Below are positions 1,624 to 27,191 of a stretch of DNA of 27,944 nt, piece after piece. The notes under the pieces were generated by a model. It did not search any database and was not told the DNA's origin. It worked only from the letters and a program-made list of their open reading frames with translations. This DNA comes from a virus (lineage: Duplodnaviria; Caudoviricetes), in the IMG/VR virus record IMGVR_UViG_3300016476_000735, positions 1 through 27,944 of that record; one strand, 5' to 3'. The position numbers and the translations under genes are program-made. Numbering within the stretch: position 1 is the stretch's first letter; the number at the start of each line of letters is the position of its first letter.

Positions 1624-1629
1624 TAAATA
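1624..1629 (+). promoter_or_regulatory. T4-like late promoter core TAAATA
   Basis: Intergenic, directly upstream of a structured region that ends in a terminator. Confidence 0.6.
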
Positions 1630-1633
1630 TATT

Positions 1634-1774
1634 ACACAGACAGCGCAATGCATCTGTGAGCTGGTATATCCAGGGGTCGGCCAAAGCCCCGAGTATATCC
1701 TGTGTGTTAGATTATCCTGTAAATTAGGGTATATCAGCGGGAAAGCCCAATCAAATCGGTTGGGCTTTCTTTTT
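1634..1774 (+). ncRNA. Candidate ~140-nt small structured RNA
   Basis: Bounded by TAAATA and an intrinsic terminator; stems CACAGA/TCTGTG (1635-1658), GCTGGTATATCC/GGGTATATCAGC (1660-1671/1727-1738) and GGGGT/GCCCC. Confidence 0.55.
1741..1774 (+). terminator. Rho-independent terminator
   Basis: GAAAGCCCAATC-AAATC-GGTTGGGCTTTC followed by TTTTT. Confidence 0.85.
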
Positions 1775-1827
1775 GGCTCAATTTTACCGATTTTCTTGCA
1801 TAAAGTGCCCATTTCTGCTAATATAGA

Positions 1828-1833
1828 TAAATA
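1828..1833 (+). promoter_or_regulatory. T4-like late promoter core TAAATA
   Basis: GATAAATA upstream of the AGGAG RBS and ATG 1856, downstream of a terminator. Confidence 0.65.
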
Positions 1834-1857
1834 AAGTTGCAACAGGAGCGACTTTAT
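1831..1857 (+). promoter_or_regulatory. RBS/start-codon sequestering hairpin
   Basis: ATAAAGTTGC-AACAGGA-GCGACTTTAT, a 10-bp stem with 1 G-U that encloses AGGAG and pairs the AT of the start codon. Confidence 0.65.
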
Positions 1858-2191
1858 GGAAATTGTTTTAACACAGGAACATCTAGACGAGATGCGAGAG
1901 ATAATGATAGCATGTGATGCTTACAAGCGCCAAAATTTGAGCCAGCGTAGTTATTACACATGGATGGATTGGGCAATAAAAGCCGCTGAGCAGATCAATG
2001 ACAACCATTTTGAAATAAATTCAGCAAAAAATACCTTTGCTTGGTTGGTGGATCAAGTGGAACATTGCCCGCCAGTAGCTGCCACTGAACTTGGTCAAAG
2101 TGTTTTGGGCTGGGCCAGCATGGCCAGTCAAGGTGCCATCACTTATGGCAGATTTATTCGTCAACAAAACTACAAAAAACTTTTTAACTGA
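1856..2191 (+). CDS. Hypothetical protein
   Basis: 111 aa ORF with AGGAG RBS. Confidence 0.8.
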   Translation: MEIVLTQEHLDEMREIMIACDAYKRQNLSQRSYYTWMDWAIKAAEQINDNHFEINSAKNTFAWLVDQVEHCPPVAATELGQSVLGWASMASQGAITYGRFIRQQNYKKLFN

Positions 2192-2192
2192 A

Positions 2193-2198
2193 TAAATA
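2193..2198 (+). promoter_or_regulatory. T4-like late promoter core TAAATA
   Basis: In a 25-bp intergenic gap before AGGAG and ATG 2217. Confidence 0.6.
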
Positions 2199-2216
2199 AT
2201 AATACAGGAGCACACA

Positions 2217-2792
2217 ATGTTAGATGGATTACCAATGAGTAGTTTAAGAGTCGATCAAAGGCGGCACTTAAAATTCGGCGGCGTTTTCTTAAAAGATAAA
2301 CCAGATAGCTTTATTGAATGGGCTATAGAAAACTTCAATGAAAAAGATCGAGAAGTAATGATTGAGGAACGCAAATATAGAATCAATCATAAAATTTGGC
2401 AACGAGAAAACACAACAGAAGATCAGCAAAATCGCCTACATGAAACTAACATTAAACTGTTCCTGCGAGATAAAGGCATAACAAAAAGAATTCTAGAGCA
2501 ACATCCAAGGCCCAGTGATGTTGCTCTGTTAGTAGATATACAACGCAGTGATGCTTATCAATATTTCACCAAAGATGAAATAGTTAAATTTAACTGTATT
2601 AGAGCAAGAGTAGCAGCCATGCGTGAAATCAGTGAATTTGAATTCAAAGTCTTGGAAAAGTTCTTGCTAAATGCAGATAGAATAATGAGCAGACGGCAAC
2701 CAAAGAACAAAAAGAAAAACCGACATGCGAGATGGAAAGATAAACAGGCCGCTCGCAATAAATTAAAAAACAAATATAAAGCTCAGGCATAA
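2217..2792 (+). CDS. Hypothetical protein with basic C-terminus, possibly nucleic-acid binding
   Basis: 191 aa; AGGAG RBS; LKFGGVFLKDKPDSFIEWA resembles the FG..L.D.P.SY..W module; K/R-rich tail. Confidence 0.7.
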   Translation: MLDGLPMSSLRVDQRRHLKFGGVFLKDKPDSFIEWAIENFNEKDREVMIEERKYRINHKIWQRENTTEDQQNRLHETNIKLFLRDKGITKRILEQHPRPSDVALLVDIQRSDAYQYFTKDEIVKFNCIRARVAAMREISEFEFKVLEKFLLNADRIMSRRQPKNKKKNRHARWKDKQAARNKLKNKYKAQA

Positions 2793-2804
2793 ACTTAGGC
2801 ATAA

Positions 2805-3242
2805 TATAGGCTCGGTGGCACCGCACCTCATCAAAACAGGAAAATCTCTATCAAGATAATGACGGTAAAGGGTAGAGCATTGCACAGTCATTTATAGCGG
2901 CTGTGAACAACAATGGCGCCGGAGTAGGGAATTCACCATTCCCGGGAGTTACATAGCCAAGCGTCTCCCGCTGAAAAGTTACTGCTATAAATCCTATAGG
3001 TGATATTTGCAATAGCAATTATTCTATTGGAGCCCGGATTGCAAATATGATTTTTTTTAACGGAAATCATATTTGCCGTCCTACGGCTCCAATTGCAGTA
3101 GTTCTTATCGCAAATATAATTTATTTCATCTGTAATCTATAATTGCTCTTTGAAAGAAATAAAAAAGAAACTAATTGCAAAACGAAATCAATAAACGAAG
3201 CGCAAGCGTAGTGATTGATGAGTTTTAAGTCCTTTAGGACTT
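2805..3242 (+). other. Highly structured non-coding region (candidate ncRNA and/or replication origin)
   Basis: ~510-bp intergenic gap with many inverted repeats, including a perfect 13-bp GCAAATATGATTT/AAATCATATTTGC and a 9-bp loop-receptor pair ATTTATAGC/GCTATAAAT. Confidence 0.65.
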
Positions 3243-3283
3243 GTAAATCCCCTATCATTAAGCACTAATATATTTCTTCCTGA

Positions 3284-3289
3284 TAAATA
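3284..3289 (+). promoter_or_regulatory. T4-like late promoter core TAAATA in the loop of an RBS-sequestering hairpin (3271-3308)
   Basis: TATTTC-TTCCT gataaataaatgta AGGAG-at-GAAATG. Confidence 0.6.
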
Positions 3290-3305
3290 AATGTAAGGAG
3301 ATGAA

Positions 3306-3611
3306 ATGGCTTACATACCAGGAGAAATAGAGCTGTTCAGTGAACTTTGGACTATTAGAGCCGGCACTGACAAAGAACTCACAAATAATCACGGCATGTG
3401 TTATTCAGATAGCTGTGAAATTATTTTTAATCCCAATACCACTTGGGATAATATATTGCATACAGTTTTACATGAACTCATACATGCAATAGAAACCAAA
3501 ACACATCTGGACCTAACTGAACGACAAGTAGATGTCATGGCTTTGGGTCTGATACATTTGTTTAGACAAAATCCCCAATTACTGGAGTTATTTGATGCCC
3601 AACAGAGGTAA
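3306..3611 (+). CDS. Small HExxH zinc metallopeptidase-like protein
   Basis: TVLHELIHAIE motif with a downstream conserved E (TERQV); AAGGAG RBS. Confidence 0.7.
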   Translation: MAYIPGEIELFSELWTIRAGTDKELTNNHGMCYSDSCEIIFNPNTTWDNILHTVLHELIHAIETKTHLDLTERQVDVMALGLIHLFRQNPQLLELFDAQQR

Positions 3612-3918
3612 AGATAAGCCGCCCAATCAAACTATGGGCACTTGGAGTTGGAACACAGCCAGTTTCCAAGCAAAATACCAAGAACAAAGTGAACTGGCCT
3701 GTTGGATTTGGCAGGGAAGTGCTGGACCCAATGGCGCACTATTTGGCGCTTATCGCAATCAACAAGCACAAATGACACAGGCAAGAAGAATTGCTTGGAT
3801 GCAACATACAAATCAACCAGTGGATCTACTGCAAATCAAAATGACCTGCAGAAATAAAATGTGTGTAAATCCACATCACATGATATCACTGCCCAACAAT
3901 AGGATTCGACATGACTGA
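3595..3918 (+). CDS. HNH-endonuclease-fold protein, likely catalytically degenerate
   Basis: CWIWQG...ARRIAW...MTCRNKMCVNPHH pattern of phage HNH proteins; the usual His of HxCxN is Met. Confidence 0.65.
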   Translation: MPNRGKDKPPNQTMGTWSWNTASFQAKYQEQSELACWIWQGSAGPNGALFGAYRNQQAQMTQARRIAWMQHTNQPVDLLQIKMTCRNKMCVNPHHMISLPNNRIRHD

Positions 3919-4123
3919 ATATAGACTAGCAGATTATCGCTATAGAGAATTAGAACCAAATCTTGCACATGCCATTAGACATATTGTGCGTAGATACAGC
4001 GACAGCAATGGCTACGACCATGAATTTGAATATTACTGGGCCAAGTTCTCAGATGCAAGTTGGTTATTGGCTGTTCTAGACAACTCAGAAGCCTGTGAGG
4101 TATTATACAATGGCAAGGCCTAA
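3911..4123 (+). CDS. Hypothetical protein
   Basis: 70 aa; overlaps both neighbours in operon style. Confidence 0.7.
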   Translation: MTEYRLADYRYRELEPNLAHAIRHIVRRYSDSNGYDHEFEYYWAKFSDASWLLAVLDNSEACEVLYNGKA

Positions 4124-4370
4124 GCCAGATATACTACTAAGAGATCTACAAGCAAAAGAAACCATGGAGATCCTGGCCAGCCCAGGTATTTGGTTTGTGC
4201 TTTATCAAGGTAGACCTATAGCTATAACTAGACGATCATGGACAGCTCAAGGAGAACTGGTAAAGTATCCACGCACAGGTTTTAACAATCCTGCACATGC
4301 TTATAAGCTAGCAGAGAGACTGAATCAAAGATTCATGACAAACCAGTTTACCGTTTTGGAGGTTAAATAA
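4110..4370 (+). CDS. Conserved phage hypothetical protein (MARPKP...GIW...F.NP.HA..LA..LN type)
   Basis: ATG 4110 with GAGG RBS; resembles from memory a family common in large uncultured aquatic phages. Confidence 0.75.
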   Translation: MARPKPDILLRDLQAKETMEILASPGIWFVLYQGRPIAITRRSWTAQGELVKYPRTGFNNPAHAYKLAERLNQRFMTNQFTVLEVK

Positions 4371-4601: not shown

Positions 4602-4741
4602 AACTTCCAGAAACCATAGCCACAGAACATGAACTACTCAAACAAAGAGTTAGATTTTATACACTGATCAATGGTTATCTTAGCGCCGGCTTTTTTGCAA
4701 TATCGGCGTATATAATTTACCGTATAGTAGGATTATTTTAA
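4598..4741 (+). CDS. Small membrane protein (47 aa, absent from ORF track)
   Basis: MKLPETIATEHELLKQRVRFYTLINGYLSAGFFAISAYIIYRIVGLF; ATGA overlap upstream, TAATG overlap with TerS; C-terminal hydrophobic helix. Confidence 0.7.
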   Translation: MKLPETIATEHELLKQRVRFYTLINGYLSAGFFAISAYIIYRIVGLF

Positions 4742-5169
4742 TGCATAGTATAGAATATCCAGAAAGAAAACAACCCAAGATTGGAGAGAAAATAGTTACG
4801 GGATTAATTATCGGCCGTGACAAAAAAGTAATTCCACAGAGTGAAGTAGAACACTTAGCCAGTCTAGGCTGCACAGATAGAGATATAGCACAGTATTATG
4901 CTATCAGTGAATCAACATTACGATACAATTTTAGCTCCGAACTGGTAAAAGGGAGACATCAACTAAAAACCAGTTTGAGACAAAAGCAAATTCAAGTGGC
5001 ACTTGAAGGCAACCCAACAATGCTTATATGGTTAGGTCGTAACATATTAAGTCAAAACGAAAACGGCATTATGAGCGATGATAAGCGTCCATTACCCTGG
5101 ACTGACGACGAGGATGATGAAGTTATCACAGATGATGAAGTCACAGATGATATAGATGCCGCTGAGTAA
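4741..5169 (+). CDS. terS: Terminase small subunit
   Basis: HTH (GCTDRDIAQYYAISESTL), GNPTMLIWLGRNILSQ motif, acidic tail; directly upstream of TerL. Confidence 0.8.
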   Translation: MHSIEYPERKQPKIGEKIVTGLIIGRDKKVIPQSEVEHLASLGCTDRDIAQYYAISESTLRYNFSSELVKGRHQLKTSLRQKQIQVALEGNPTMLIWLGRNILSQNENGIMSDDKRPLPWTDDEDDEVITDDEVTDDIDAAE

Positions 5170-6400
5170 TCCACAAAAGATAATTTGTGAGGCACCTTTT
5201 AGATTCCGTGTAGCAGTATGCGGTCGTCGTTTTGGCAAGACTCATGTAGCAATACGAGAACTCGCGAGGTTTGCATCACAGCCCGATAAGACTTGCTGGT
5301 ATCTAACAGGAAGCAGGCAGCAGGCCAAGTCCTTGGTATGGACCAAGTTAAAGAAAAAGTTGAGAAAACTTAATTGGATTCAAACTACCAATGAAAGTGA
5401 GCTCAGCATTGAACTGATTAATGGTAGTAAAATCTGTCTTAAGAGTGCAGAGCAAGGTGATAATCTGCGTGGTGAAAGTTTAACATTCTTAGTCATTGAC
5501 GAATTTGCAGACATAGATCTAGATGAGATATGGAATCAAATACTTAGACCCGCACTCAGCGATCAAAAAGGTCATGCACTTTTTTTGGGGACGCCTAAGG
5601 CTGGTAATCAAACTGCCCGTGACTTATACGACAATGCATTAGTTAAAAAGAATTGGGTTAGCTTTAGTTTTACTACAATCGACGGTGGATTCGTCGATGA
5701 GGAAGAAATAGCACAAGCCCGGCAAGATTTAAGTCCTAAGGTATTTGCACAAGAATATCTTGCATCATGGGAAAACTTTGCCGGTGTTATCATGTATGAT
5801 TTCGGCGAACATAATATTAAGGAAGTTAAACCTCCCACTGCAAATGAACCATTAGTAGTAGGCATGGACTTTAACATCACGCCCTTGGTTTGCCAGATAG
5901 GCCGACACACAAAAACTGGCATTGAAATATTCGATGAAATAGTATTAGAAAATTCAAATACTAATGAAGTCTCCATGGAGTTACGAAATCGCTATCCTAC
6001 TCAGCCTATTACTGTGTTTCCGGATCCTGCGGGAGGTGCAAGAAAAACCAGTGCCAATGGTAATACAGACATTAAGATTCTAGAAATGGCTGGTTTTACT
6101 ACACGATATCATCGCAGTCATCCATTAGTTAAAGATAGAATAAATGCTTGTAATAGTTTATTCTTTAAGAGAGAAGATGGATCTACGCGATTTACAATAG
6201 ATCCCAAATGCAAATATACAATTAAGAGTCTTAAGAATTGGACCTATAAAGAAGGCACAATGATTCCCTCTAAGAATGAAGGACAAGACTGGAGCCACGC
6301 TTGCGATAGCCTAGGCTATCTCATTGAATATTTGTTCCCTATACAGAAACCTATAGTAGCAAAAGTGCCGCAACGATTCGGCCACGCTTTGGCTGCATAA
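5156..6400 (+). CDS. terL: Terminase large subunit
   Basis: Walker A CGRRFGKT, Walker B LVIDE, GTP motif, FAQEYLA, nuclease motifs GMDFN and HACDSLGY. Confidence 0.96.
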   Translation: MPLSNPQKIICEAPFRFRVAVCGRRFGKTHVAIRELARFASQPDKTCWYLTGSRQQAKSLVWTKLKKKLRKLNWIQTTNESELSIELINGSKICLKSAEQGDNLRGESLTFLVIDEFADIDLDEIWNQILRPALSDQKGHALFLGTPKAGNQTARDLYDNALVKKNWVSFSFTTIDGGFVDEEEIAQARQDLSPKVFAQEYLASWENFAGVIMYDFGEHNIKEVKPPTANEPLVVGMDFNITPLVCQIGRHTKTGIEIFDEIVLENSNTNEVSMELRNRYPTQPITVFPDPAGGARKTSANGNTDIKILEMAGFTTRYHRSHPLVKDRINACNSLFFKREDGSTRFTIDPKCKYTIKSLKNWTYKEGTMIPSKNEGQDWSHACDSLGYLIEYLFPIQKPIVAKVPQRFGHALAA

Positions 6401-6403
6401 ATA
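6398..6403 (+). promoter_or_regulatory. T4-like late promoter core TAAATA
   Basis: Overlaps the TerL stop; upstream of the GGAG RBS of the portal gene. Confidence 0.55.
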
Positions 6404-6427: not shown

Positions 6428-7900
6428 ATGGCAGAAATTACACTACAACAGGCCTACCAAAGCGCCGTTGCAACGAACTATTTGTATAACAGAAATAGAG
6501 ATCGTTGGCAATTCTTAATGGATTCATATCAAGGCGGTGAAGACTATCGCAATGGTGCTTACCTACAGCGTTATGCACTGGAAAACGACAAAGAATATAG
6601 TCTGCGTCTAACAAATACACCTTTAGATAATCAATGTAAAAGTCTAATCAGTCTTTATATCAGTTTCTTGTTTAGAGATGATGCCAGCAGAGATTTTGGT
6701 AGTTTAGATGAACATCCCATGGTGGAAAGCATACTAGAAGATGCAGACCTAGATGGACGCAGTATGAGTGCATTCATGAAAGATGTGGCAATATGGGCCA
6801 GCGTATTTGGACATTGCTGGATCTGCGTGGCCAAACCTAATGTGGAAGCCGCCAGTCTAGCAGATGAACTAGCACAAGGTGTTCGTCCTTATCTATCAAT
6901 GTATGTTCCATTGGCTGTTACAGATTGGACATGGGAGCGTCAACCTAATGGTGGTTATGCACTTAGCTATATCAAATTGCTAGAAGAAATCAATGATACA
7001 GAAACTAGAGTTGTAGAATGGACTCGCGAGTTTATCACTACCACAGTTATCAATGTAAAGAATAAAGAAGCTGTTAATTTTTATGTTGAACCTAATGGAC
7101 TAGGTCGTTTGCCTTTTATCTGCGCTTATGCAGAACGCAGTCCTGTTCGTGGTTTGGGTTCAAGTTTAATCTCAGATATTGCCGATCAACAGCGTATGAT
7201 TTACAATGAACTCAGTGAAGTTTATGACAGCATTAGATTGGATACACACCCAAGTCTTGTTGCCACCGAAGCAGTTAATACTACAGGTGCGGCAGCTGGA
7301 CAAGTTATCACCATGCCGGAAAACATGGATCCACAATTGAAGCCATATGTGCTACAATTCCAAGGTGGTCAAATCAGCAGTATCTATGACAGCATCAATA
7401 ATCGCGTTAAGATGATTGACAGTATGGGCAATGTAGGTTCAGTTCGTGCCACAGAAAGTAGGGAAATGTCAGGTCTGGCTATTTCTGTGGAATTTCAACT
7501 TTTGAACGCCCGCCTATCAAGTATTGCTGATAACCTTGAATTAGCTGAAGAACAAATTTGGCAAGAAATCTGCACATACCTAGGCATGGAGTGGGATGGC
7601 ATAATTGAATATCCCAGCAACTTTGCACTACACAATATTGACAATGAGCTAGACCAATTGGCCAAGATGAAACAATTAAGCACACGCCCAGAAATCCAAT
7701 TGGAAGTTGACAAGCGTATTGCTGAAATTCTAGATATAGAAATGTTAGAACAACAGTTAGGCACAGAAGTTGAAGAAGGTGAACAACCCATGGGTTACAC
7801 AGCACACAACATGATGAATGCAGAAGGATTGGTTATGTGGGTGGAGACACCGGAAGAAGAAGCCAATGCAATAGCCGCAGGCTATACACAAATGGTTTGA
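6428..7900 (+). CDS. Portal protein
   Basis: 490 aa directly after TerL; SGLA, DADLDG and GHCWI segments typical of SPP1-like portals. Confidence 0.9.
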   Translation: MAEITLQQAYQSAVATNYLYNRNRDRWQFLMDSYQGGEDYRNGAYLQRYALENDKEYSLRLTNTPLDNQCKSLISLYISFLFRDDASRDFGSLDEHPMVESILEDADLDGRSMSAFMKDVAIWASVFGHCWICVAKPNVEAASLADELAQGVRPYLSMYVPLAVTDWTWERQPNGGYALSYIKLLEEINDTETRVVEWTREFITTTVINVKNKEAVNFYVEPNGLGRLPFICAYAERSPVRGLGSSLISDIADQQRMIYNELSEVYDSIRLDTHPSLVATEAVNTTGAAAGQVITMPENMDPQLKPYVLQFQGGQISSIYDSINNRVKMIDSMGNVGSVRATESREMSGLAISVEFQLLNARLSSIADNLELAEEQIWQEICTYLGMEWDGIIEYPSNFALHNIDNELDQLAKMKQLSTRPEIQLEVDKRIAEILDIEMLEQQLGTEVEEGEQPMGYTAHNMMNAEGLVMWVETPEEEANAIAAGYTQMV

Positions 7901-7906: not shown

Positions 7907-7912
7907 TAAATA
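7907..7912 (+). promoter_or_regulatory. T4-like late promoter core TAAATA
   Basis: Intergenic, upstream of the scaffold-capsid genes; followed by hairpin GGAGAA-TGAT-TTCTCC. Confidence 0.65.
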
Positions 7913-7968: not shown

Positions 7969-8640
7969 ATGAGCGATAATACATCGGCTACAACAGAGAC
8001 TACTGAGGTCTCCACAGAAACAACTCAGGCAACGAAGACATTTACGCAAGATGAAGTCAATGCGATCTTGGCCAAAACTAAAACGCAATTAGAGCGTAAG
8101 TTTGCGTCAAAATACGAAGACTTAGGTGATCCTGAAGAACTTAGAACTATTGTCAGTCAATACAATAAGACTCGAGAGGAACAAGCTATCAAGCGTGGTG
8201 AATTCGAAAAAGTGCTACAGGAAAAGTTAGCGGCACGAGACGCTGAAATTTCCAAGCGCGACAAAATTATTGAGGAATTCCGATTGAACACTCCCATATT
8301 GGACGCGGCCGCAAGATTTCGTGCAGTTGCACCGGATCAAGTTAAAGCTCTCATTAGAAATAATGTGCGCCTAAACCCAGAAGGTGAACCCGAAGTCATC
8401 GATCGCGAAGGTAAGGTGAGGTATGACGATGCAGGTCGTCCATTATCAGTAGATTCTTTTGTTCAAGAGTTCTTGCAACAAAATCCACACTTTGTTCAAC
8501 CAACACCCTCTACCACTGCAACACGCAGTAATTTGGGTGGTGCAAAAATTGATAAACTCGATGTCGCCAAACTGGACATGAAAAATCCAGAGCACAGAAA
8601 ACTCTATGCGGAATATAGAAAATCCGCTGGAATTGTTTAA
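7969..8640 (+). CDS. Capsid scaffolding protein
   Basis: KTFTQDEVNAIL motif, coiled coil, position between portal and MCP. Confidence 0.85.
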   Translation: MSDNTSATTETTEVSTETTQATKTFTQDEVNAILAKTKTQLERKFASKYEDLGDPEELRTIVSQYNKTREEQAIKRGEFEKVLQEKLAARDAEISKRDKIIEEFRLNTPILDAAARFRAVAPDQVKALIRNNVRLNPEGEPEVIDREGKVRYDDAGRPLSVDSFVQEFLQQNPHFVQPTPSTTATRSNLGGAKIDKLDVAKLDMKNPEHRKLYAEYRKSAGIV

Positions 8641-8656
8641 TTAAAGGAAATTAAAA

Positions 8657-9502
8657 ATGGCTGGTTCTACCACTACTACATTAAACGATCTATTGCCTAG
8701 CATTGTTGCTGAGGCTATGTTCGTAGCAGGCGAGCGTTCTATTATGCGCGGCCTAGTTAAAAATTACGCTTTGGCTCCAGGTCAAGGCAAAACTGTTACA
8801 GTTCCTATCTATCCTCTTCAAACTGCCGCTGGCGTTACTGAAGGTGACGAAGTTAGCAACACAGCAGTATCTACAAGCGGTGCAACATTGACTGTTAGCA
8901 CAGCCGCTATCCGCACTTTGGTTACTGACCTTGCTGTTGCTTCTAGCGCAAGCAATGTTGTTGCTGACCTAGGTCGTTTATTCGGTGAAGCTATCGCTCG
9001 CAAAGTTGACGCCGACTTGATGGCCCTATTCAGTGGTTTCTCCGCTGGTGTTGGTGCCGCTGACGCCGCTCTAAGCGCCGCAACAATTGCCAAAGCAGCC
9101 GCTACATTGCGTGCCGCTGGCGTTCCTGCTACTGACTTAGCATGTGTTGTTAACCCTTATGTTGCTTATGACCTTAAGGCTAACTTAACAAACACATTTG
9201 CTAACCCAAATGCAGGTATGATCCAAAACGAAGCAATGGCAACAGGTTATGTTGGTTCATTGTTCGGTATCCCAGTTTATGAGTCTAGCCTAATTGCTGA
9301 CACAGGAACAGCTGGTGATTATGTTGGTGCTGTTTTCCACCGCGAAGCTCTAGGTTTAGCTACCGTCGGTGACATCAACATCGAAACTCAGCGTCGTGCT
9401 AGCTACTTAGGCACTGATGTTGTTGCTTCTATGCACTATGGCGTAGGCGAACTATATGATGGCTACGGCGTAAAAGTTACTGCCGACAGTTCCATTCTTT
9501 AA
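8657..9502 (+). CDS. Major capsid protein (HK97 fold)
   Basis: 281 aa; GKTVTVP, AIARKVD, CVVNP and GSLFGIPVYES motifs; strong codon bias. Confidence 0.92.
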   Translation: MAGSTTTTLNDLLPSIVAEAMFVAGERSIMRGLVKNYALAPGQGKTVTVPIYPLQTAAGVTEGDEVSNTAVSTSGATLTVSTAAIRTLVTDLAVASSASNVVADLGRLFGEAIARKVDADLMALFSGFSAGVGAADAALSAATIAKAAATLRAAGVPATDLACVVNPYVAYDLKANLTNTFANPNAGMIQNEAMATGYVGSLFGIPVYESSLIADTGTAGDYVGAVFHREALGLATVGDINIETQRRASYLGTDVVASMHYGVGELYDGYGVKVTADSSIL

Positions 9503-9521
9503 TCACTAAAGGGAGATCACG

Positions 9522-10031
9522 ATGGCTTTTAACTACAACGGTTCTACTTTTGTATCATTTGCTGTTTATGCTGATGTCGTCCAGCGTGACTCTCGCCTAT
9601 TTGAAGCAAACGAGGTAATCAATGACTCGACACTGATCGATGCCATGTTGACTTTAAGTAGTCAGCGTATCTTAACTAAAATTAAGAATAGTGATTGGTG
9701 GGCTTCTTATAACTTTGATCGTAATGTTGCTTTGCAAAGAGATGTAAGACAACTTCCTGATGTAGACCCCGACAAAATCGATGCGATGCAACAGGAATTT
9801 AAAGACATGAATATCTATCATGCGCTTTATGAATACATCCTTCCCAAGGTAGCAGATTTTGGTAATGAAACCAGTGCGGAAGTCGTTAAGATCAAGCACT
9901 ACAAAGACCAATTCGACATGTTATATAAAGAAGTCATTGAAGCAGGCAGCTGGTATGATTTCGATGGCGACAACGCTATTGAAACTACTGAAAAAGCTCC
10001 CAGCATCGTTAACCGTGTGAGAATTAGATAA
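9522..10031 (+). CDS. Putative head-tail adaptor
   Basis: Position after MCP; 169 aa; C-terminal YDFDGDNAI. Confidence 0.6.
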   Translation: MAFNYNGSTFVSFAVYADVVQRDSRLFEANEVINDSTLIDAMLTLSSQRILTKIKNSDWWASYNFDRNVALQRDVRQLPDVDPDKIDAMQQEFKDMNIYHALYEYILPKVADFGNETSAEVVKIKHYKDQFDMLYKEVIEAGSWYDFDGDNAIETTEKAPSIVNRVRIR

Positions 10032-10423
10032 TGCGTAGCCAATTGATTACATACATGACTAATAATATGCCCAGTGCTTTTAAGGTCAGCCAAGAATTAC
10101 CATTCGATGAGGGTGGCAATCCTTTGTTCCGCAAAAACATGAAGCGTTTTTATTTAGGCAATGCGCAGGTAGAGACTACAGTTCTACAGGCAATTATCAA
10201 TGGTAACGATGTTATGGAAACTCGCACAACAGTTTTCGCTTACCTAGCAGTAGATGCTAAGAATAGGCCAAGTGATTTAGACACAGCACTCAGTGTAATG
10301 GCTAACGCCAGGACACAAAGTGGTATAAGCAATTCATTTAGAAATGAGTTTACTTACACTACTGAAATAGACGAAGGTGTAGAGATTTACACATTCGAGT
10401 ATAATTTCTACACGATAGCATAA
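10031..10423 (+). CDS. Putative tail terminator / head-tail joining protein
   Basis: 130 aa, beta-rich, directly upstream of the tail tube. Confidence 0.55.
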   Translation: MRSQLITYMTNNMPSAFKVSQELPFDEGGNPLFRKNMKRFYLGNAQVETTVLQAIINGNDVMETRTTVFAYLAVDAKNRPSDLDTALSVMANARTQSGISNSFRNEFTYTTEIDEGVEIYTFEYNFYTIA

Positions 10424-10433
10424 AGGAAAAAAA

Positions 10434-10946: not shown

Positions 10947-10966
10947 TCAGTCCTGTGTATAACGAC

Positions 10967-19643: not shown

Positions 19644-19669
19644 GTCGTATAACAGAAAAGGATAAAGAT

Positions 19670-22600
19670 ATGGCATTACAGATCCGTAGAGGAACTAACG
19701 CAGAACGATTAGGCATTACACTAGTAGAAGGTGAAATAGCTTATGTCACAGACTTTGAGTTAGTGACTATTGAAGTAACTAGCATAAATGTAAGCACAGA
19801 TACATTAACTACAACATTGAATCATGGCCTAAGTGTTAATGATCAAATTAAATTTATTGGCAACTCAGCAAATGGCCTAGTTGCAGGCACAGTATATTTT
19901 GTTAAAACTGTGCCCGACGCAAATAACTTTACTCTAAGTGCAACACAAGGTGGCGCAACTTTTAACATTACTGGCACAACCGGATCTGTAAGTTTAACAT
20001 TTGCAGTTGGTCCAACGGACGCACTGGGCACACCATATGGTTACACAATTAGCCCTGTATATGTAGGTGATGGAGTCACAGCAGGTGGTAATCCAGCTGG
20101 CGCCAGTGTGCTAGCAGATTTATATGATGTCGAAATTGGCGTATATGGTAATGTCGGCCAGTATGGCGAAGCATTAGATAATGGTCAATTCCTAGTATTC
20201 AATGAAGATACACTCAAGTGGGAAAATACAAATACTGTTAGCGTAACCGATGTAGCACAAACTCCAGAGTTTGTGCGCCAAACAACAGACAGCGCAGAAA
20301 CTACCACAACATTAAGAACAGCTTTAAGAATTGGTAAAACAATCACAGATGGATCTAATGAAGATAATGGTGGCCCTGCTATTCTTTTCCAAACTACAGG
20401 ATCAAACGGCACCAAGGGTGTGGTGCAAACAGGTGCCCAAGTTAACAGTTCCGGCAATCATGATTTTGTAGTTAGAGAAAGTAATGATGGATTTTCCACT
20501 GCTAATACATTAATAATCAGCAACCCTGTTCGAACAAGCATCAACGAGGGTGTGCTTTATGTAGACAAAACTAACAATAGAGTTGGTGTTAATAACACCA
20601 GTCCAACATATAGTTTGGATGTAGCAGGCAATGGCCGTTTTACACAAGGCGGAACATTTTCTAATACCACTGTTGGTGTAAGTGCAAGTGGCACTATTAC
20701 TACGCTTTCTGGTGATTTAACATTGGACAGCGCCAGCGGACAAACAACCATTAACACCAATGCTGTTGTTGCAGGTGACTTAACTGTTACAGGTAATGAT
20801 ATTAAGAAAAGCGGTGGCACAACTGTTATTACATTCAGTGGCACTAATTTAACTACACTAGCAGGCGACTTAACTGTAACTGGCAATACCATCCGCGGCA
20901 GCGCAGGTGCAGATGCTATCGAAATCAGCGGATCCGATATCAGCACAGGTGATATTACACTTAACGGTGGTGACATTCGCAGTAGTGGCGGCGCCGTTGC
21001 TATCACAGTAAGCAGTGGCAATGTCAGCATGCCGGGTAACCTAACAGTTAGCGGTGATTTAACTGTTAATGGCACAACAACTAACTTAGACACAGTTAAC
21101 CTTGTTATTGAAGATAACACAATTCTTCTTAACAAGAACGAAAGCGGCAGCGGTGTAACAGCAGGCTCTGCAGGTATTGAAATCGAACGCGGCACAGGCT
21201 CAAATGTCAGTTGGCTATGGAATGAAACAAACAAGTGGTGGTATCCAGAAGGCGATTTTGCTAACCAGACAGTCTGGGCAGGTAATTACCTAATTGCAGG
21301 AACAGGTTTAGCTACTAACGGCAATCTAATTATTTTTAACAACGAAGACAGCACAGATGCCAACTGTGATATCCAAGTCAAGCGTGGAACCGCAGAAACT
21401 TATGATGCATTTATTCGTTGGAATTCAACTGTAGACCGTTGGCAATTCAACAATGGTGATAATTTATTCCGCAATATGGTTATCAGCATTGATGATCTCA
21501 GCGATGTCACAATGAGCGGACCAAGCAAAGGTTCTTTGCTTTATCATAACGGCAGCGAATGGGTTAATGCAACTCGTCTAGAATTCAACACCAATGCGAA
21601 TAGACTGCAATTGGTTAATAATGTGACTGGCGGAAACTCTGCTTTAGAATTATTAAAGCGTGGTGGATCCACTATAGCAGATGGTGAAGCAGTTGGCCAA
21701 TTATTTGGTGCTATTACTACCGGCGATACAAAAACTCAAATGCACAGACTTTGGAGTGTGTATGATTCCAGTGGCAATCACGAATTCAAAATACAAAATG
21801 ACAGCACCAACAGCTTTGGTTCTGGCAGCACAACTGTATTAGATAGTCTAAGCATTAGCAAAGTTGCATCTTATCTGCAAAGTGATTACCAAACATTTAA
21901 CAGCGGTAGTGGCAACACTACATACCTAACATTAAATGGCGCCGGCAGTCAAGTGTTAACAGACTTTACTATTGGTAATGCCACTAGCGATAACTTAACT
22001 GTTAACAGTCAAGTAAACGGCAACATTACATTTAAAGCCACAGACACATGGACTGGTATTACCGGTGTTAACGGCACTAATGATGCATGGAAGATTGGTG
22101 GCTATGCCAGCGGCAGCAATGCAGGTGAATTAATTATTGCCACAGGCGATGATCAAAGTGAACCAATTGTATTCCGTCAATACAGTGGTAACTTTGACAC
22201 AGGCGGTTATCGTCAAACTGTTATCATGGACGCTAGCGGTAATGCTAATTTCTGCGGCGAGATTGATACTATAGGTGCTGTCACAGTTGGCGGAACATTA
22301 ACTGTAGAAGGCAGCGAAATTGTTCTTTATAACGACAGCGGTTTTAGAGTAGAGCGTGGCGCAACAGATGCAACATTTAAGTGGAACGAAGCCAATGACT
22401 TTTGGCAGACCAATTACAGCATATTTGCTAACGATGGTTTAATCTCCGGCAACTACCTAGCCACTAACGGCAATGACATTTACTTTAACAATGAGAATGG
22501 CACAGCTGGTGATGCTCGCATTACAGTCAAGCGTCCTAGTGGTGGTAATCCGCAGATTGTTTGGAGTCAAAGCAATGGTCGTTGGCAAACTACTGTTGAC

Positions 22601-22987
22601 AGTAGCACATACTTAAATATACCAAACCAAAACTTAGATACAAACAGCGATGTTAATTTTGCTGGTGTTACTATTGACAATCGTGCTACATTTAACACTG
22701 GCGCAGTTACAACTACCAGCACATCAGCATTTACTCTAGACGAAACAAATAGAAATGCTATCAAGTGTATGGTATATATTAGCAGTGGCACAGACAGCCA
22801 TGCAGTAGAAATACTAATCATGAGAACAGCCAGTTCTGCCATGATGACAACATATGGCGAAATGTATACAACAGCTCCGTTGGCTACATTTACAGCAGAT
22901 CAAAGTGGTGGCAACATAAGAATCCGTTGCACACCAGCAAGTGCTACTAGCACTACATTTAGCGTTGTAAGATACAGCCTAACCTAA
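19670..22987 (+). CDS. Long tail fibre / receptor-binding protein 1
   Basis: MALQIRRGT...EGE N-terminus (Mtd-N-like), GDLTVTGN repeats, AGIEIERG modules; 1105 aa. Confidence 0.8.
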   Translation: MALQIRRGTNAERLGITLVEGEIAYVTDFELVTIEVTSINVSTDTLTTTLNHGLSVNDQIKFIGNSANGLVAGTVYFVKTVPDANNFTLSATQGGATFNITGTTGSVSLTFAVGPTDALGTPYGYTISPVYVGDGVTAGGNPAGASVLADLYDVEIGVYGNVGQYGEALDNGQFLVFNEDTLKWENTNTVSVTDVAQTPEFVRQTTDSAETTTTLRTALRIGKTITDGSNEDNGGPAILFQTTGSNGTKGVVQTGAQVNSSGNHDFVVRESNDGFSTANTLIISNPVRTSINEGVLYVDKTNNRVGVNNTSPTYSLDVAGNGRFTQGGTFSNTTVGVSASGTITTLSGDLTLDSASGQTTINTNAVVAGDLTVTGNDIKKSGGTTVITFSGTNLTTLAGDLTVTGNTIRGSAGADAIEISGSDISTGDITLNGGDIRSSGGAVAITVSSGNVSMPGNLTVSGDLTVNGTTTNLDTVNLVIEDNTILLNKNESGSGVTAGSAGIEIERGTGSNVSWLWNETNKWWYPEGDFANQTVWAGNYLIAGTGLATNGNLIIFNNEDSTDANCDIQVKRGTAETYDAFIRWNSTVDRWQFNNGDNLFRNMVISIDDLSDVTMSGPSKGSLLYHNGSEWVNATRLEFNTNANRLQLVNNVTGGNSALELLKRGGSTIADGEAVGQLFGAITTGDTKTQMHRLWSVYDSSGNHEFKIQNDSTNSFGSGSTTVLDSLSISKVASYLQSDYQTFNSGSGNTTYLTLNGAGSQVLTDFTIGNATSDNLTVNSQVNGNITFKATDTWTGITGVNGTNDAWKIGGYASGSNAGELIIATGDDQSEPIVFRQYSGNFDTGGYRQTVIMDASGNANFCGEIDTIGAVTVGGTLTVEGSEIVLYNDSGFRVERGATDATFKWNEANDFWQTNYSIFANDGLISGNYLATNGNDIYFNNENGTAGDARITVKRPSGGNPQIVWSQSNGRWQTTVDSSTYLNIPNQNLDTNSDVNFAGVTIDNRATFNTGAVTTTSTSAFTLDETNRNAIKCMVYISSGTDSHAVEILIMRTASSAMMTTYGEMYTTAPLATFTADQSGGNIRIRCTPASATSTTFSVVRYSLT

Positions 22988-23007
22988 TCATAAGGATTGT
23001 GTGAATT

Positions 23008-25773
23008 ATGAGTAACGAAAAATTTAGAGTCAAATTTGGCTTACAAGTAGGCGATGACGCCGCAAGCATAGATACCAGCGGTAATCTTACAATGGCCGGA
23101 GATTTAACTGTCTCCGGTAATGAGATCAAAAGTAGCACTACAAATACTGCTATTACCCTAAATGATACCAGCGTGACTATTGCAGGTAACCTAACTGTGC
23201 AGGGAACAACAACCACAGTTAACAGTGAAACAGTAAACATTGCTGACAATATCATAACATTGAACAGCAATGTCACTGGCACACCAACAGAAAGCGCCGG
23301 TATTGAAGTTGAGCGTGGCACTGATCCTAACAGCTCAATAACATGGAATGAAATATCAGACAAATGGGAACAAAATCGTGGTGGCACTACTACAGTTATT
23401 CCTGTTAACACAACAGAATTAAATGAAGGCACGAATTTATACTATACAGATGCTAGAGCTCGTGGTGCGATTAGTGTCACCGATACTGGTGGTGATGGCA
23501 GTCTTGCTTATGATAATGGCACTGGTGTTATTACATATACTGGACCTAGTGCGACTGAAGTAAGAGCACACTTTACAGGCGGCACTGGAGTCACAATTAC
23601 TGATGGCGAAATAGCAATTGGACAAGCAGTAGCAACAACCAGCGATGTTACTTTTGATGATATCACTGCCACTGGCACAATTAAAAACGCAGGCAAAGGT
23701 ATCTATGCCGGTAGCAATAAAACATTCTCTACTGGTGATACCACAGATGTTTTCCGTTTTAGATCACCTACCGGCACAGATGATTATACAGCTATCACTG
23801 GTTTGTTAGCTTCTAACGCAGATAAAACAACTACATTAGGAGCAAGGCCCGGCGTAGCAATTCGTGGTTATGGACAAAATATTACAGGTGGCACAACTAC
23901 AACTGTTGCTAACCCTGGTATTCATTGCGAAACAACGAGAGGCACTCCGTCTAATCCAATTGCCACAGGTTCCAACGAAGCCTTAGGTATTCTAAACGGT
24001 TACGCACAAGCAGGCACTACGGCAGGATCACCATACTGGGTCAGCGAAAATTATCCTGTTCCACAAACGCAATTTGTTATGGCCACCGTTCAGGCACAAA
24101 GTGCTACGCCAAGTGCCAGTGCTACATTTACAGCAAACTTTACCACCGGCACTACAATGACTGTCACAGCAGTAAGTAGTGGCACAATAACACCCGGCCA
24201 TGAAATGCGTTATAACAGCGGTGGCTCTACAAGTTTTAGATCTACTAACACTTATGCTATCGCAAACCAAATTACCAGTGACCAGCCCGCAGTAGCAACA
24301 ACCACAGCAACTACAAATCAATTTCCCACAACTAAAATTATTGTAGCAGATGCCACAGGCATAGCAGTTGGACAATTAATCACTGGCACCGGCATCCCAG
24401 CTGGCACTTATGTTAGTTCTATCAGCGGCACAACTATTACACTGAGAACAGCTAACAACAGTCCTGCTTTAACAACTGCTAATTTAACCGGATCTACTGT
24501 AAACTTTTATACAGCAGGTGGCACTGGAACTTATACTATAAACGCCAGTCCATATACAAGTTCACAAACAGGTGTTAGTGCCAGCACTTATGCGGTGACA
24601 TTGGGAACGGTTGTTCTAACAAGAAGTCAACCTTCCAGCACAGCATTGACAGCACAAAGTCGTCCTACTACCAGCCAATATACAGGAACTACCAGTGCTT
24701 GGACAGCTCAATCAACATATACTACCAGTCACTTTGTTTGGAGCACTTGGCCCACAACGGTCACAGGCGGCACTAACAAAACATTAGGCTTCTTTGGTCC
24801 ACAGAACAGCGGCATCAATGCTGATAGAACTACTTTTAGTAGTTATAGCAATCCTGCGCAAAATGTCCAAATTAGTTTTCCAGAATTACAAAACGATCAA
24901 AATTTGCTGTTGAATATGAATATGAAGACCAGAAGTTCAACTACTTTTCCGGTCATCAACTTTACAAACCAACGCACACTAGATAATGTTAACTACACAG
25001 CAACACAGGTTGGAGACTCATTAGGTGCGTTTAAATTTAATGGTAATGCTTATACCGGAACAAGCTCAGGTGTTCCAGCTGGTCCGGCGGCACAGATTAG
25101 TTGTATAGCTACTGAAGATTGGAGCGGCACAGCCAACGGTGCTAAATTTACCTTTACTACTATCAAGCAAGGAACAACCGATGACTTGACCGTTATTGAA
25201 GGCAGCTCTAACCAAAGTTATTTCCGCACCGACGCACTAACCTTTCAAGATAGCAATTATCAATCGCTCAAAGGTAATGCTATCACATATAGCCGTAGCA
25301 TACTAAGTGTTCATAACCACTCTACTATCGCGCCGGCAGCAGTGGATACTGAATATACTATAACATTTGACGAAACACCACACGAAAGCAACAACATTAC
25401 TGTAGTCAGCAATAGCCAAATCACTTTTGCTACCAGTGGCGCACACCGTATGCGTTTTAGTGGACAAGCAGTAAACACAGGCTCAAGTGCCGCACATACC
25501 TATGTTTGGCTAAAGAAGAACGGCACAGACTTAGCAGACACAGCAAGAAAAGTTACGCTTCTAAAATCCAGTAGTGGTGACAGCCAGCAGTTGGTTGATT
25601 TGGAATGGATCATAAATCCTGCTAATGGTGATTATTACACATTACATTTTGCCAGTGATTCTACTAATGTAAGTTTAGAAGCAACCGCGGCAGGTGTGCC
25701 CAGTGGATTTACCAATACTAGCATACCAGCGGTGCCAAGTGCCACGCTAATCGTCATGCCAATAGGTGCTTAA
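23008..25773 (+). CDS. Long tail fibre / receptor-binding protein 2
   Basis: KFRVKFGL N-terminus, GNLTVQGTTT, AGIEVERG and EGTNLYYTDARAR; Thr-rich; C-terminal beta-sandwich; 921 aa. Confidence 0.8.
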   Translation: MSNEKFRVKFGLQVGDDAASIDTSGNLTMAGDLTVSGNEIKSSTTNTAITLNDTSVTIAGNLTVQGTTTTVNSETVNIADNIITLNSNVTGTPTESAGIEVERGTDPNSSITWNEISDKWEQNRGGTTTVIPVNTTELNEGTNLYYTDARARGAISVTDTGGDGSLAYDNGTGVITYTGPSATEVRAHFTGGTGVTITDGEIAIGQAVATTSDVTFDDITATGTIKNAGKGIYAGSNKTFSTGDTTDVFRFRSPTGTDDYTAITGLLASNADKTTTLGARPGVAIRGYGQNITGGTTTTVANPGIHCETTRGTPSNPIATGSNEALGILNGYAQAGTTAGSPYWVSENYPVPQTQFVMATVQAQSATPSASATFTANFTTGTTMTVTAVSSGTITPGHEMRYNSGGSTSFRSTNTYAIANQITSDQPAVATTTATTNQFPTTKIIVADATGIAVGQLITGTGIPAGTYVSSISGTTITLRTANNSPALTTANLTGSTVNFYTAGGTGTYTINASPYTSSQTGVSASTYAVTLGTVVLTRSQPSSTALTAQSRPTTSQYTGTTSAWTAQSTYTTSHFVWSTWPTTVTGGTNKTLGFFGPQNSGINADRTTFSSYSNPAQNVQISFPELQNDQNLLLNMNMKTRSSTTFPVINFTNQRTLDNVNYTATQVGDSLGAFKFNGNAYTGTSSGVPAGPAAQISCIATEDWSGTANGAKFTFTTIKQGTTDDLTVIEGSSNQSYFRTDALTFQDSNYQSLKGNAITYSRSILSVHNHSTIAPAAVDTEYTITFDETPHESNNITVVSNSQITFATSGAHRMRFSGQAVNTGSSAAHTYVWLKKNGTDLADTARKVTLLKSSSGDSQQLVDLEWIINPANGDYYTLHFASDSTNVSLEATAAGVPSGFTNTSIPAVPSATLIVMPIGA

Positions 25774-25776
25774 ATA
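25771..25776 (+). promoter_or_regulatory. T4-like late promoter core TAAATA
   Basis: Overlaps the fibre stop; upstream of the small-gene cluster; followed by hairpin GGCCAATTG/CAATTGGCC (25796-25828). Confidence 0.55.
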
Positions 25777-25917
25777 ATGCAGTTATACATTATCGGGCCA
25801 ATTGTTTTCCAGATGATTGCAATTGGCCTTATATTAGAAACATTAGGAGTAGACTATGAGAAACTTACCAACCCGGGGCAGCAGAACCAAAACCAACAGG
25901 GGCAAGAAGCCGCCTAA
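25777..25917 (+). CDS. Possible 46-aa membrane peptide
   Basis: MQLYIIGPIVFQMIAIGLILETLGVDYEKLTNPGQQNQNQQGQEAA; AGGTG upstream; overlaps 25856..25927 in another frame. Confidence 0.35.
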   Translation: MQLYIIGPIVFQMIAIGLILETLGVDYEKLTNPGQQNQNQQGQEAA

Positions 25918-25927
25918 AAAGTATTGA
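25856..25927 (+). CDS. 23-aa highly basic peptide
   Basis: MRNLPTRGSRTKTNRGKKPPKKY; AGGAG RBS 6 nt upstream. Confidence 0.6.
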   Translation: MRNLPTRGSRTKTNRGKKPPKKY

Positions 25928-25936
25928 GGTATTTTT

Positions 25937-26083
25937 ATGCCAGTTCACAAGGTAACTAAAGATGGAAAAACAGGATATAAATGGGGCACTAGTGGAAAAG
26001 CCTACTTCGGTAAAGACGCCAAGGAAAAGGCGCAACAGCAAGCTAGGGCAATTTACGCTAGTGGATATCGAAAGAAAAAGTGA
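25937..26083 (+). CDS. 48-aa conserved basic phage protein (absent from ORF track)
   Basis: MPVHKVTKDGKTGYKWGTSGKAYFGKDAKEKAQQQARAIYASGYRKKK; GAGGT RBS; MPV..V..GY.WG.SGK.Y...A..Q.RAIYASG pattern recognised from phage genomes. Confidence 0.8.
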   Translation: MPVHKVTKDGKTGYKWGTSGKAYFGKDAKEKAQQQARAIYASGYRKKK

Positions 26084-26084
26084 T

Positions 26085-26357
26085 ATGAGTCAAGAGGAAC
26101 GAGATTTGGCCACGCATGTAGAAATATGCGCCCTACGCTATAAAGGCATTGAGGAGAAGTTTGATGGGATTGAGAAACGACTCACTAAGGTGGAGACTGA
26201 TATCTCTACTATTAAAAACACAATGCAATCAGGGTTCAGTGATATTAAGATCCTTTTGGAAAAGCAAAGCAACGCCAGATTCATTCAAATGACTGCAACA
26301 TTTGGCACCATTGCGGCAGCTATTATAGGTGTTATAGGCTACATCATTACTCACTGA
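26085..26357 (+). CDS. Coiled-coil protein with C-terminal TM helix (holin/XhlA-like)
   Basis: True start probably ATG 26085 (MSQEERDLATHVEICALRY); HVEICA.RY motif, heptads, terminal hydrophobic helix. Confidence 0.65.
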   Translation: MSQEERDLATHVEICALRYKGIEEKFDGIEKRLTKVETDISTIKNTMQSGFSDIKILLEKQSNARFIQMTATFGTIAAAIIGVIGYIITH

Positions 26358-26367
26358 TTCGGGCCCT

Positions 26368-26373
26368 TAAATA
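26368..26373 (+). promoter_or_regulatory. T4-like late promoter core TAAATA, predicted leaderless transcript
   Basis: Intergenic; 5 nt separate the motif from ATG 26379; no SD. Confidence 0.55.
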
Positions 26374-26378
26374 CGGCT

Positions 26379-27191
26379 ATGAAAATGAGAAGAGTATGGC
26401 ATGGGTATTTGGAAAAATACCCAGCCGATCCAGATACTGCATTAGCAAAATTGCTTCATTGGCACCGTGGTTATAAACCAACTGCCACCAGCGCCTATCC
26501 TGAACCATTTAATCTTATAGCGGCCAGTGCATGGCGCACACGGCCCGCTATTCCTGATTATAAACATGCTATTATTTTTAAGGATGAATCTACGGACTAT
26601 TGGGTTATAGCTATTGGAACTATAGACTTGGCACATGCTGATATACATGCATGGATGATGAAAGAATTTAGTTTAGGTGCAGTTGCAGTATGGACTAATG
26701 ATGGCGCACTATTTCCTAGACCACAACCAACATACTATGCCATGGATGATGAGCCCGGCACAAATGGCTCTGTAAGCAAAGATCCTGTGACACTGACACA
26801 GCGTTTATTGGACATGGACAAGTATCGTGTGGGTGAGCTTGACCTAAAGCAATTCTATCCAGAAAAATTTAAGCTAACGGAAAAGCATTTAGTTATACTA
26901 GCAGATTACAAGCCAGACTCGCAGGGCAATTATCCTACTAGGGCTAGGACAAAACCAAAAAATCCAAAATTACCTGGCCAGGGCAGTGGTAACAGTCGTT
27001 GTGTTTATACACCTATGGGAGTATATCCCAGCATTAAATTGGCCGCGGAAGCAAATGGTATGACCATGAGCAAAATGTATGCTAATATCAGCGGATCGGT
27101 TCAAGGTTATGGTTATCTAAGTAGAGAAGAATATCTTCGACAGACAACATTAAATATCAGTGAAGATACACAGAGTGTAGCTTCCAACTAG
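26379..27191 (+). CDS. Hypothetical protein with C-terminal NUMOD1-like HTH
   Basis: VYTPMGVYPSIKLAAEANG...ANI.G...GY.YLSREEY parallels the C-terminus of 1107..1613. Confidence 0.7.
   Translation: MKMRRVWHGYLEKYPADPDTALAKLLHWHRGYKPTATSAYPEPFNLIAASAWRTRPAIPDYKHAIIFKDESTDYWVIAIGTIDLAHADIHAWMMKEFSLGAVAVWTNDGALFPRPQPTYYAMDDEPGTNGSVSKDPVTLTQRLLDMDKYRVGELDLKQFYPEKFKLTEKHLVILADYKPDSQGNYPTRARTKPKNPKLPGQGSGNSRCVYTPMGVYPSIKLAAEANGMTMSKMYANISGSVQGYGYLSREEYLRQTTLNISEDTQSVASN

Follow-up and report, generated by a model that had tools for sequence, protein, structure and literature searches.

Virophages provide the closest described parallel to the locus reported here, as the late promoter of the helper virus has been found ahead of 12 genes of Sputnik and all genes of Mavirus (PMC6723459). 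The nearest bacterial cases are MiniFlayer and MulchRoom, Streptomyces satellites of 20-26 genes that carry their own capsid, portal and terminase and are described as missing key replication genes; MiniFlayer is also described as having no integrase, and codon usage as being tied to that of the helper (PMC10690885). In phage T4, the late box TATAAATA is read via gp55, gp33 and gp45 as a -10-only promoter without a -35 element (PMC7892883), and variants of the box have been reported as NATAAATA in cyanophages (PMC2984593) and ATAAATA in phage CBB (PMC5259590). Our study concerns the hexamer TAAATA in a 27,944 nt stretch of a tailed phage genome (IMG/VR record IMGVR_UViG_3300016476_000735, positions 1 to 27,944; hereafter the window) and in its relatives. 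We place a probability of roughly 0.7 on the reading that this widespread clade is a virophage-like satellite virus of jumbo phages, which makes its own virion and would depend on a co-infecting helper for late transcription. Reproduction is likely only in jumbo-co-infected cells, because the clade has a late-promoter box and neither a detectable sigma factor nor a lysis enzyme.

The clade resembles the virophages Sputnik, Mavirus and Guarani in that its own virion genes stand behind a helper-type late promoter. Virophages differ in being eukaryotic, with an unrelated virion, a cytoplasmic factory and a viral RNA polymerase, whereas the clade would borrow a sigma factor for the host RNA polymerase; dependence has been shown for virophages and is inferred here. 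Compared to MiniFlayer and MulchRoom, the clade has a full siphoviral tail, genomes of 28-31 kb and sometimes a primase-helicase, and the words promoter, sigma and tape measure are absent from the main text on those satellites (PMC10690885). Like T4-type late promoters, the box of the clade is -10-only, has no -35 element and sits in the same register; however, T4, the cyanophages and CBB encode their own gp55, whereas the clade has no detectable factor in cis. Expression of P4 and of the phage-inducible chromosomal island-like elements (PLE) is under helper-triggered transcriptional control. Together with phage-inducible chromosomal islands (PICI) and capsid-forming PICI (cf-PICI), they would share with the clade helper-triggered expression, and they share an own primase or Rep (see PMC11389934, PMC12822802). 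These elements integrate and take helper capsids or tails, whereas the clade has no integrase match and needs no structural parts. The traits that define PICI, P4 and PLE (an integrase, chromosomal residence and a helper-supplied capsid or tail) are thus not those of the clade, which carries a full virion module.

Profile scans of the 34 open reading frames (ORFs) of the window identified a siphovirus encoding terminase, portal, scaffold, capsid, tape measure, Dit, hub and fibres. TAAATA occurs 14 times on the + strand, at every coordinate listed by the initial annotation of this sequence, and twice on the - strand. The total of 14 matches the Markov expectation (11-17) while the placement between genes exceeds that of shuffled sequence, so the signal is positional: nine copies lie in intergenic DNA including stops (2.4 ± 1.5 expected; nine was reached in 1 of 2000 shuffles) and six when stop codons are set aside (1.7 ± 1.2 expected; shuffle maximum of 6 in 1000). 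Non-coding DNA is indeed a small fraction of the window, at 5.7 %, and the reverse complement of the hexamer is depleted (2 vs 13-18 expected). The initial annotation had counted ten sites at gaps or stops; nine were recovered as such, and the site at 4364 lies over the final codons of ORF 4110-4370, with 1 nt left to the next ATG. Its four sites inside genes were found where it had placed them, yet sense copies in long ORFs are at or below background (4 vs 11 expected), and the site at 27151 has no + strand gene downstream. It had also proposed a positional test against shuffled sequence and named AT content and TAA stops as a possible trivial source. The test found TAAATA to be enriched between genes, and both sources were ruled out by the shuffles and by the finding that ATA follows 21 of 488 TAA stops in the clade.

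The capsid protein of the window matched 112 IMG/VR stretches, of which 80 were kept (69-91 % identity), and further homologues were found on 61 metagenome loci and one GTDB contig; the longest contig among these 80 + 61 + 1 loci is 34.9 kb. That record (G004; L098, L099) repeats several kb and carries endonuclease VII twice, so its length is probably due to assembly overlap. In GenBank the only matches were DSL-LC06, a metagenomic genome (44 %), and four cultured pelagiphages of the HTVC111P type (51-54 %); in the capsid tree the clade forms one branch (97/92), sister to the cultured four. Twenty relatives, labelled with G-numbers, were fetched whole, six of them with direct terminal repeats (DTR-complete) and 28-31 kb in length. 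Pooled counts refer to 20 genomes including the window, with G008 left out of most as a near-copy of G004.

Across these 20 genomes, TAAATA has a strand ratio of 223:40, with no other permutation of the hexamer exceeding 1.9. Intergenic copies number 131 in sense orientation (34.5 ± 5.4 expected; maximum of 49 in 100 shuffles) and four in antisense (30 expected). Avoidance within genes was expressed as observed over expected counts relative to codon-shuffled genes, sense then antisense. By this measure TAAATA is purged from the clade (47/163, 33/228) and alike from two freshwater jumbo phage contigs, G031 (26/69, 13/95) and G030 (76/234, 88/271). Avoidance is weaker in HTVC008M (63/108, 61/122) and contig G019 (44/58, 33/62), and there is none in the cultured relatives (93/95, 135/106) or a Vibrio phage (10/9, 11/10); TATAAT is mildly avoided in the clade (108/191, 158/236). 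Among 58 distinct ends of the terminase large subunit gene (terL), the box of the portal promoter lies inside terL in 29, at the terL stop in 18, at both in none and at neither in 11. Five GenBank genomes are among these rows, one internal row derives from a fused reading frame, and the rows are not phylogenetically independent; a Fisher P of 1e-8 therefore overstates the pattern. The TAAATA box is under selection in the clade.

Adenines at -12, -9 and -8 in the T4 structure place TATAAATA at -13 to -6 (PMC7892883). In the clade, an ORF starts within 80 nt after 129 of 263 TAAATA sites, and the spacing from box to ATG peaks at 4-5 nt (9 and 14 sites), is empty at 8-11 nt and has a second group at 15-19 nt. 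The 5-nt spacing recurs at 12 sites in HTVC008M (52/186 sites near an ORF start), 11 in G030 (105/281) and five in G031 (63/108), compared to one in the cultured four (39/306) and one in PA5oct; for TATAAT in the clade, the peak lies 6 nt before the ATG. The box of the clade has a core of six letters, preceded preferentially by A or C. As the initial annotation had remarked, it lacks a -35 element: no consensus emerged from 137 aligned sites, and by reading of the sequence the site at 1828 overlaps a weak TTGCAT-17-TAATAT pair. By the proxy of leaderless starts, the register of TAAATA (-11 to -6; 5 nt before the ATG) is that of a gp55 promoter. An archaeal TATA box was rejected by inference, because a start 25 nt downstream would not fit within spacings that peak at 5 and 15-19 nt. 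Terminators precede many boxes in the clade, and in the window the site at 10995 directly follows a terminator at 10967-10984, as annotated initially.

For 37 boxes no ORF lies within 95 nt, and hairpins and U-tracts are common downstream of them. With none dropped, 20 of the 37 have their first helix starting 4-7 nt past the box, compared to 23 % of 300 controls (P 4e-5); once 11 were dropped by eye, the figure is 17 of 26. Short non-coding units of ~40-190 nt downstream of a late box, which have a hairpin at their 5' end on the predicted +1 and carry a terminator, were seen in the window (1624-1775), G002, G003, G004, G005, G007, G015, G023, G027 and others, some sharing sequence between genomes; Rfam gave no matches in the seven sources scanned. 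These units are candidate helper-triggered small RNAs.

Profile scans of the 34 window proteins matched no sigma factor, clamp, polymerase, helicase, integrase or endolysin. This bears out the initial annotation, which had also listed gp33, a family outside the search, although primase and helicase genes do occur in three relatives. The gp55 profile phrog_234 found nothing in 20 small genomes at E 1 (positive control HTVC008M, 3.5e-66), nor did the jumbo late-sigma profile phrog_12791 in 22 (positive control G030, 2e-81) or the sigma-70 region 2 profile in 17. The sigma search that the initial annotation had suggested, made here on relatives, was therefore empty with its positive controls matched; a 74-aa ORF of G003 gave a sub-threshold match to sigma region 1.1. 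The gp45-clamp profile phrog_223, run without a positive control, matched nothing in G030, G031 and three small genomes, and the endolysin profile phrog_7 had no match in 17 genomes. Sigma, polymerase, integrase and endolysin were likewise not found among 149 non-core proteins of relatives (PHROGs, Pfam; 170 listed, less most G008 duplicates) and 70 more (PHROGs), the scans covering ORFs from 55-60 aa to 700-900 aa outside most core clusters. Within the sensitivity of the profiles, the six DTR-complete genomes have no detectable late sigma, endolysin or polymerase. NCBIfam gave 0/29 and Atlas no match, its zinc-ribbon lead remaining below 0.9. Profile clustering found the holin-like family to be the only non-virion family in all six DTR-complete genomes, which share no candidate regulator. 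The cultured four all have an annotated lysozyme or M15 peptidase.

Near-consensus TTGACA-N16-18-TATAAT promoters were found in the non-virion block of relatives (11 genomes scanned). G005, for instance, has eight of them and G010 has six; the window had one weak site, and its early promoter was probably cut off at the right end. Because these blocks carry sigma-70 promoters, the design appears to be two-tier, with early genes read by the host and late genes by the helper, and only the late tier looks helper-dependent. The initial annotation had suggested that the phage may fire its genes only with a helper, which agrees with the boxed late virion genes and the missing sigma, but not with the host-type promoters of early genes. 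The features of the window are as follows.

1-294, + strand: C-terminal part of an NrdC.10-like AAA ATPase, truncated at the window start; gene order shared with G001 and G011; family matches in Atu_ph07 and T4-like phages
296-1613, + strand: two related ORFs (296-1117 and 1107-1613), the second with weak NUMOD3/homing-endonuclease matches
1624-1629, + strand: TAAATA late box, predicted +1 at 1635, upstream of a non-coding unit
1635-1775, + strand: predicted structured small RNA of ~140 nt; hairpin from the predicted +1, hairpin plus U-tract at the 3' end; z -4.5, 0/200 shuffles; no Rfam match
1828-1833, + strand: TAAATA box 22 nt upstream of ORF 1856-2191
2193-2198, + strand: TAAATA box 18 nt upstream of ORF 2217-2792
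3284-3289, + strand: TAAATA box 16 nt upstream of the SprT-like/HNH gene block 3306-4370
4110-4370, + strand: 86-aa gene; cultured homologues of the family solely in PA5oct-type, Atu_ph07 and Phosso jumbo phages
4364-4369, + strand: TAAATA over the end of ORF 4110-4370, ahead of the terminase block
4741-6400, + strand: terminase genes, for the large subunit and for a putative small subunit assigned by position
6398-6403, + strand: TAAATA over the stop codon of terL, 24 nt ahead of the portal gene
6428-7900, + strand: portal protein
7907-7912, + strand: TAAATA box ahead of the scaffold and major capsid genes; position conserved in relatives
7969-10946, + strand: scaffold, major capsid protein (8657-9502), head-tail genes and probable major tail protein (by position)
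10967-11000, + strand: intrinsic terminator (10967-10984), then TAAATA at 10995, which would restart transcription for the tail module
11023-25773, + strand: siphoviral tail module with tape measure, Dit, hub, acetyltransferase, central fibre and two long fibres; intragenic TAAATA at 16788, 19426 and 22614
25771-25776, + strand: TAAATA on the stop of the last fibre gene, ahead of the holin-like gene
25962-26357, + strand: holin-like gene (XhlA/holin profile), endolysin partner not detected; family in 6/6 DTR-complete relatives
26368-27191, + strand: TAAATA-N5-ATG (predicted leaderless) and a 270-aa gene of unassigned function
27151, + strand: TAAATA with no + strand gene downstream in the window
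27382-27874, - strand: divergent early-type genes; 27382-27741 homologous to freshwater jumbo phage genes (E 1e-13 for G030, 2e-9 for G031)
~27931-27936, - strand: TATAAT, whose -35 would fall past the window end

Several of these regions merit a brief comment. Positions 2793-3305 comprise 513 nt without a convincing ORF between two late units, a possible origin or RNA, and by eye the three ORFs in 296-1613 and 26379-27191 have homing-endonuclease-like features. The model of the 270-aa protein was confident only in its C-terminal part, and two predicted structures were of low confidence (predicted local distance difference test scores of 55 and 52). The junction of the two long fibre genes (22847-23037) showed contig variants and a loose end, possibly reflecting fibre variation in the population.

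A helper was suggested by shared genes, codon usage and promoter signature. The family of ORF 4110-4370, queried with its G010 member, matched 14 of 50,697 phage records, all of them PA5oct-type, Atu_ph07 or Phosso jumbo phages, and the ORF itself matched G030 at E 2e-15. Two window ORFs match G030 and G031, but not G019 or HTVC008M. An NrdC.10-like ATPase has its best match in Atu_ph07, and its paralogue in FLC6-type phages. A PA5oct gene retrieved 221 IMG/VR stretches, and all four large contigs tested from this retrieval encode a gp55-like late sigma. Codon usage of the window is nearest to G031 (0.21), compared to 0.44 for G019, which has a similar GC content; G031 is nearest in 14 of 21 genomes, G019 in four and G030 in three. 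The related jumbo phage CBB is reported to have 35 ATAAATA sites and a gp55-like sigma, its cited text giving no gp33 or gp45 homologues (PMC5259590). Endonuclease VII was rejected as a T4 link, its best cultured matches being ~44-kb Xanthomonas/Xylella phages. Taken together, these data make G031, G030 or another freshwater jumbo phage of the PA5oct/Atu_ph07 type the most likely helper, and different clade members may use different helpers. The T4-like helper of the initial annotation is thereby retained as regards a gp55-type late sigma system and replaced as regards the phage, a jumbo rather than a classical T4-like myovirus. Its wider proposal, a full-virion siphovirus wired to the late sigma of a helper, withstood each refuting check applied to it and gains from a motif that is not an artefact, a gp55 register and complete relatives without a detectable sigma; the early tier and the helper type had to be changed, and dependence would follow from these sequence features.

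A number of observations weigh against helper dependence, or against this helper. The window is incomplete, short by about 2.7 kb, and a metagenome scan for the absent part gave no match: its record is linear and 96 % complete, and its proteins are also present on a separate 30,638-bp contig. The relatives are not phylogenetically independent samples, and the clade and its box register are known from sequence. Primase and helicase are encoded in G002, G010 and G014, the early blocks of relatives are long and variable like those of autonomous phages, and no integrase or partition system common to the clade explains persistence. Most non-virion ORFs have no family match, and a novel activator or lysin could hide among them. 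Genes shared with the sampled jumbo phages are only 27-48 % identical, and tail-fibre domains and a glycosyltransferase match Kyanoviridae-type phages better. PA5oct scarcely avoids TAAATA (188/236, 192/201, observed/expected), and the cited text of its description lists only sigma-70-like promoters (PMC7318152). Co-occurrence with gp55-encoding phages, which the initial annotation had recommended examining, did not separate the helper types, with 12/75 datasets for jumbo and 6/74 for T4-like gp55 among the matches listed (P 0.21).

There are three other explanations. An autonomous phage could have its own late activator, and lysin, unrecognized among early genes that lack annotation or in the 2.7 kb that the window does not cover. 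Self-activating phages usually combine host-type early promoters with a special late promoter; here most small ORFs lack annotation, one G010 ORF has helix-turn-helix (HTH) matches and 13 of 21 genomes encode a zinc-ribbon-like protein. However, one conserved promoter should need one conserved factor, and outside the virion genes only the holin-like family recurs in every DTR-complete genome; neither the window nor G002 or G009 has the zinc-ribbon family, the sigma profiles are empty and the register of the box equals that of gp55. A self-activating phage is therefore unlikely.

We regard as similarly unlikely that the factor comes from the host, as a host sigma reading a -10-only TAAATA or as the gp55 of a persistently carried large phage or prophage. 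The sole GTDB contig with a relative is a 16-kb contig of a metagenome-assembled genome (MAG), phage throughout the 13.7 kb read; for the same reason its Chitinophagaceae host label was not accepted. Yet gp55-type profiles matched none of 14 control genomes (at E 0.001 or E 0.1), sigma-70 promoters with a different spacing coexist in the same genomes, a host sigma would leave the missing endolysin unexplained, and a jumbo phage in a carrier state would still count as a helper. A facultative cycle, completed alone by read-through from early promoters with the boxes a co-infection boost or relics, would fit the co-orientation of most genes with the early block. It is very improbable given the terminators upstream of many boxes, the strong present-day avoidance of TAAATA, the boxes on lineage-specific genes and the undetected endolysin.

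Under dependence on a jumbo helper, the phage would inject independently through its own tail, and its variable early block (Rep or primase-helicase, endonucleases and DNA-modifying enzymes) would be expressed by host sigma-70. Virions would be made only once the gp55-type late sigma of the helper reprograms RNA polymerase to the TAAATA promoters, and release would rely on the helper's endolysin, perhaps timed by the phage's own holin. We put forward more tentatively a fuller version, in which this freshwater family of 28-31 kb siphoviruses would be true bacterial virophages that build their own particles, rely on PA5oct/Atu_ph07-like jumbo phages for late transcription and lysis, direct helper-triggered small RNAs and endonucleases against the helper, and arose from autonomous pelagiphage-like ancestors by promoter rewiring.

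The closest cultured phages, HTVC111P, 112P, 026P and 202P, have been grown as purified clones (bioRxiv 2019.12.14.876532). They resemble the clade in homologous head and tail genes, a major capsid protein (MCP) identity of 51-54 %, a genome of about 32 kb and a sister position in the MCP tree. They are self-sufficient and, unlike the clade, lack the TAAATA signature and have an endolysin, shared regulatory or replication genes and 30-31 % GC. The clade falls outside the HTVC111P-type group, as it has neither its shared non-virion genes nor its endolysin and lies outside its MCP clade. DSL-LC06, placed in the proposed family 'Nanhuiviridae' and described in the cited text by taxonomy and host prediction rather than by promoters or a helper (PMC10611076), has virion and accessory clusters in common with the clade, is depleted of TAAATA within genes (1/11, 3/20) and gave no sigma or endolysin match. 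It differs in an MCP identity of 44 %, a long branch of uncertain placement in the MCP tree and intergenic TAAATA that is not significant (6 vs 4.2). 'Nanhuiviridae' is defined by gene-sharing cluster VC_342_0, and the window and DSL-LC06 were compared by shared clusters.

Two alternative tail-tube modules were seen (window 10031-11763 compared to G009, G025 and G011), one in 14 genomes and the other common to the cultured pelagiphages and DSL-LC06. Glycosyltransferases, DNA methyltransferases and UDP-glucose dehydrogenase occur in relatives, and several of them are of a type seen in large phages (L103:5835-7446, L094:1600-2715, L088:11686-12468, L253:5717-6981, L083), including a TET-associated glycosyltransferase with a ParB-like gene. 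The 4-mer GTAC is wholly absent from 13 of 21 genomes, ACGT from seven, AGCT from five and CATG from two, the window lacking GTAC and ACGT; G030 and G031 avoid none of the four. The missing 4-mers suggest strong restriction pressure from the host or helper and may help to assign hosts. A 28-nt match between G007 and L196 was ruled out as a spacer array, as it falls in coding DNA, and scanning IMG/VR with whole fibres and the ATPase added no further finding.

In the open-access literature searched, we met no description of a phage with a full virion that is wired to the gp55 of a helper. Satellites are usually recognized by missing virion genes, and this clade looks complete and would be counted as autonomous. 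If the reading is true, bacteria have a virophage-style parasite of jumbo phages, which would explain why such phages resist culture alone. It would also name the partners, with the TAAATA promoters on one side and the late sigma factor encoded by G031 or G030 on the other, and would provide a sequence-only screen for hidden phage-on-phage dependence, in the form of a helper promoter signature with no cognate sigma and no endolysin.

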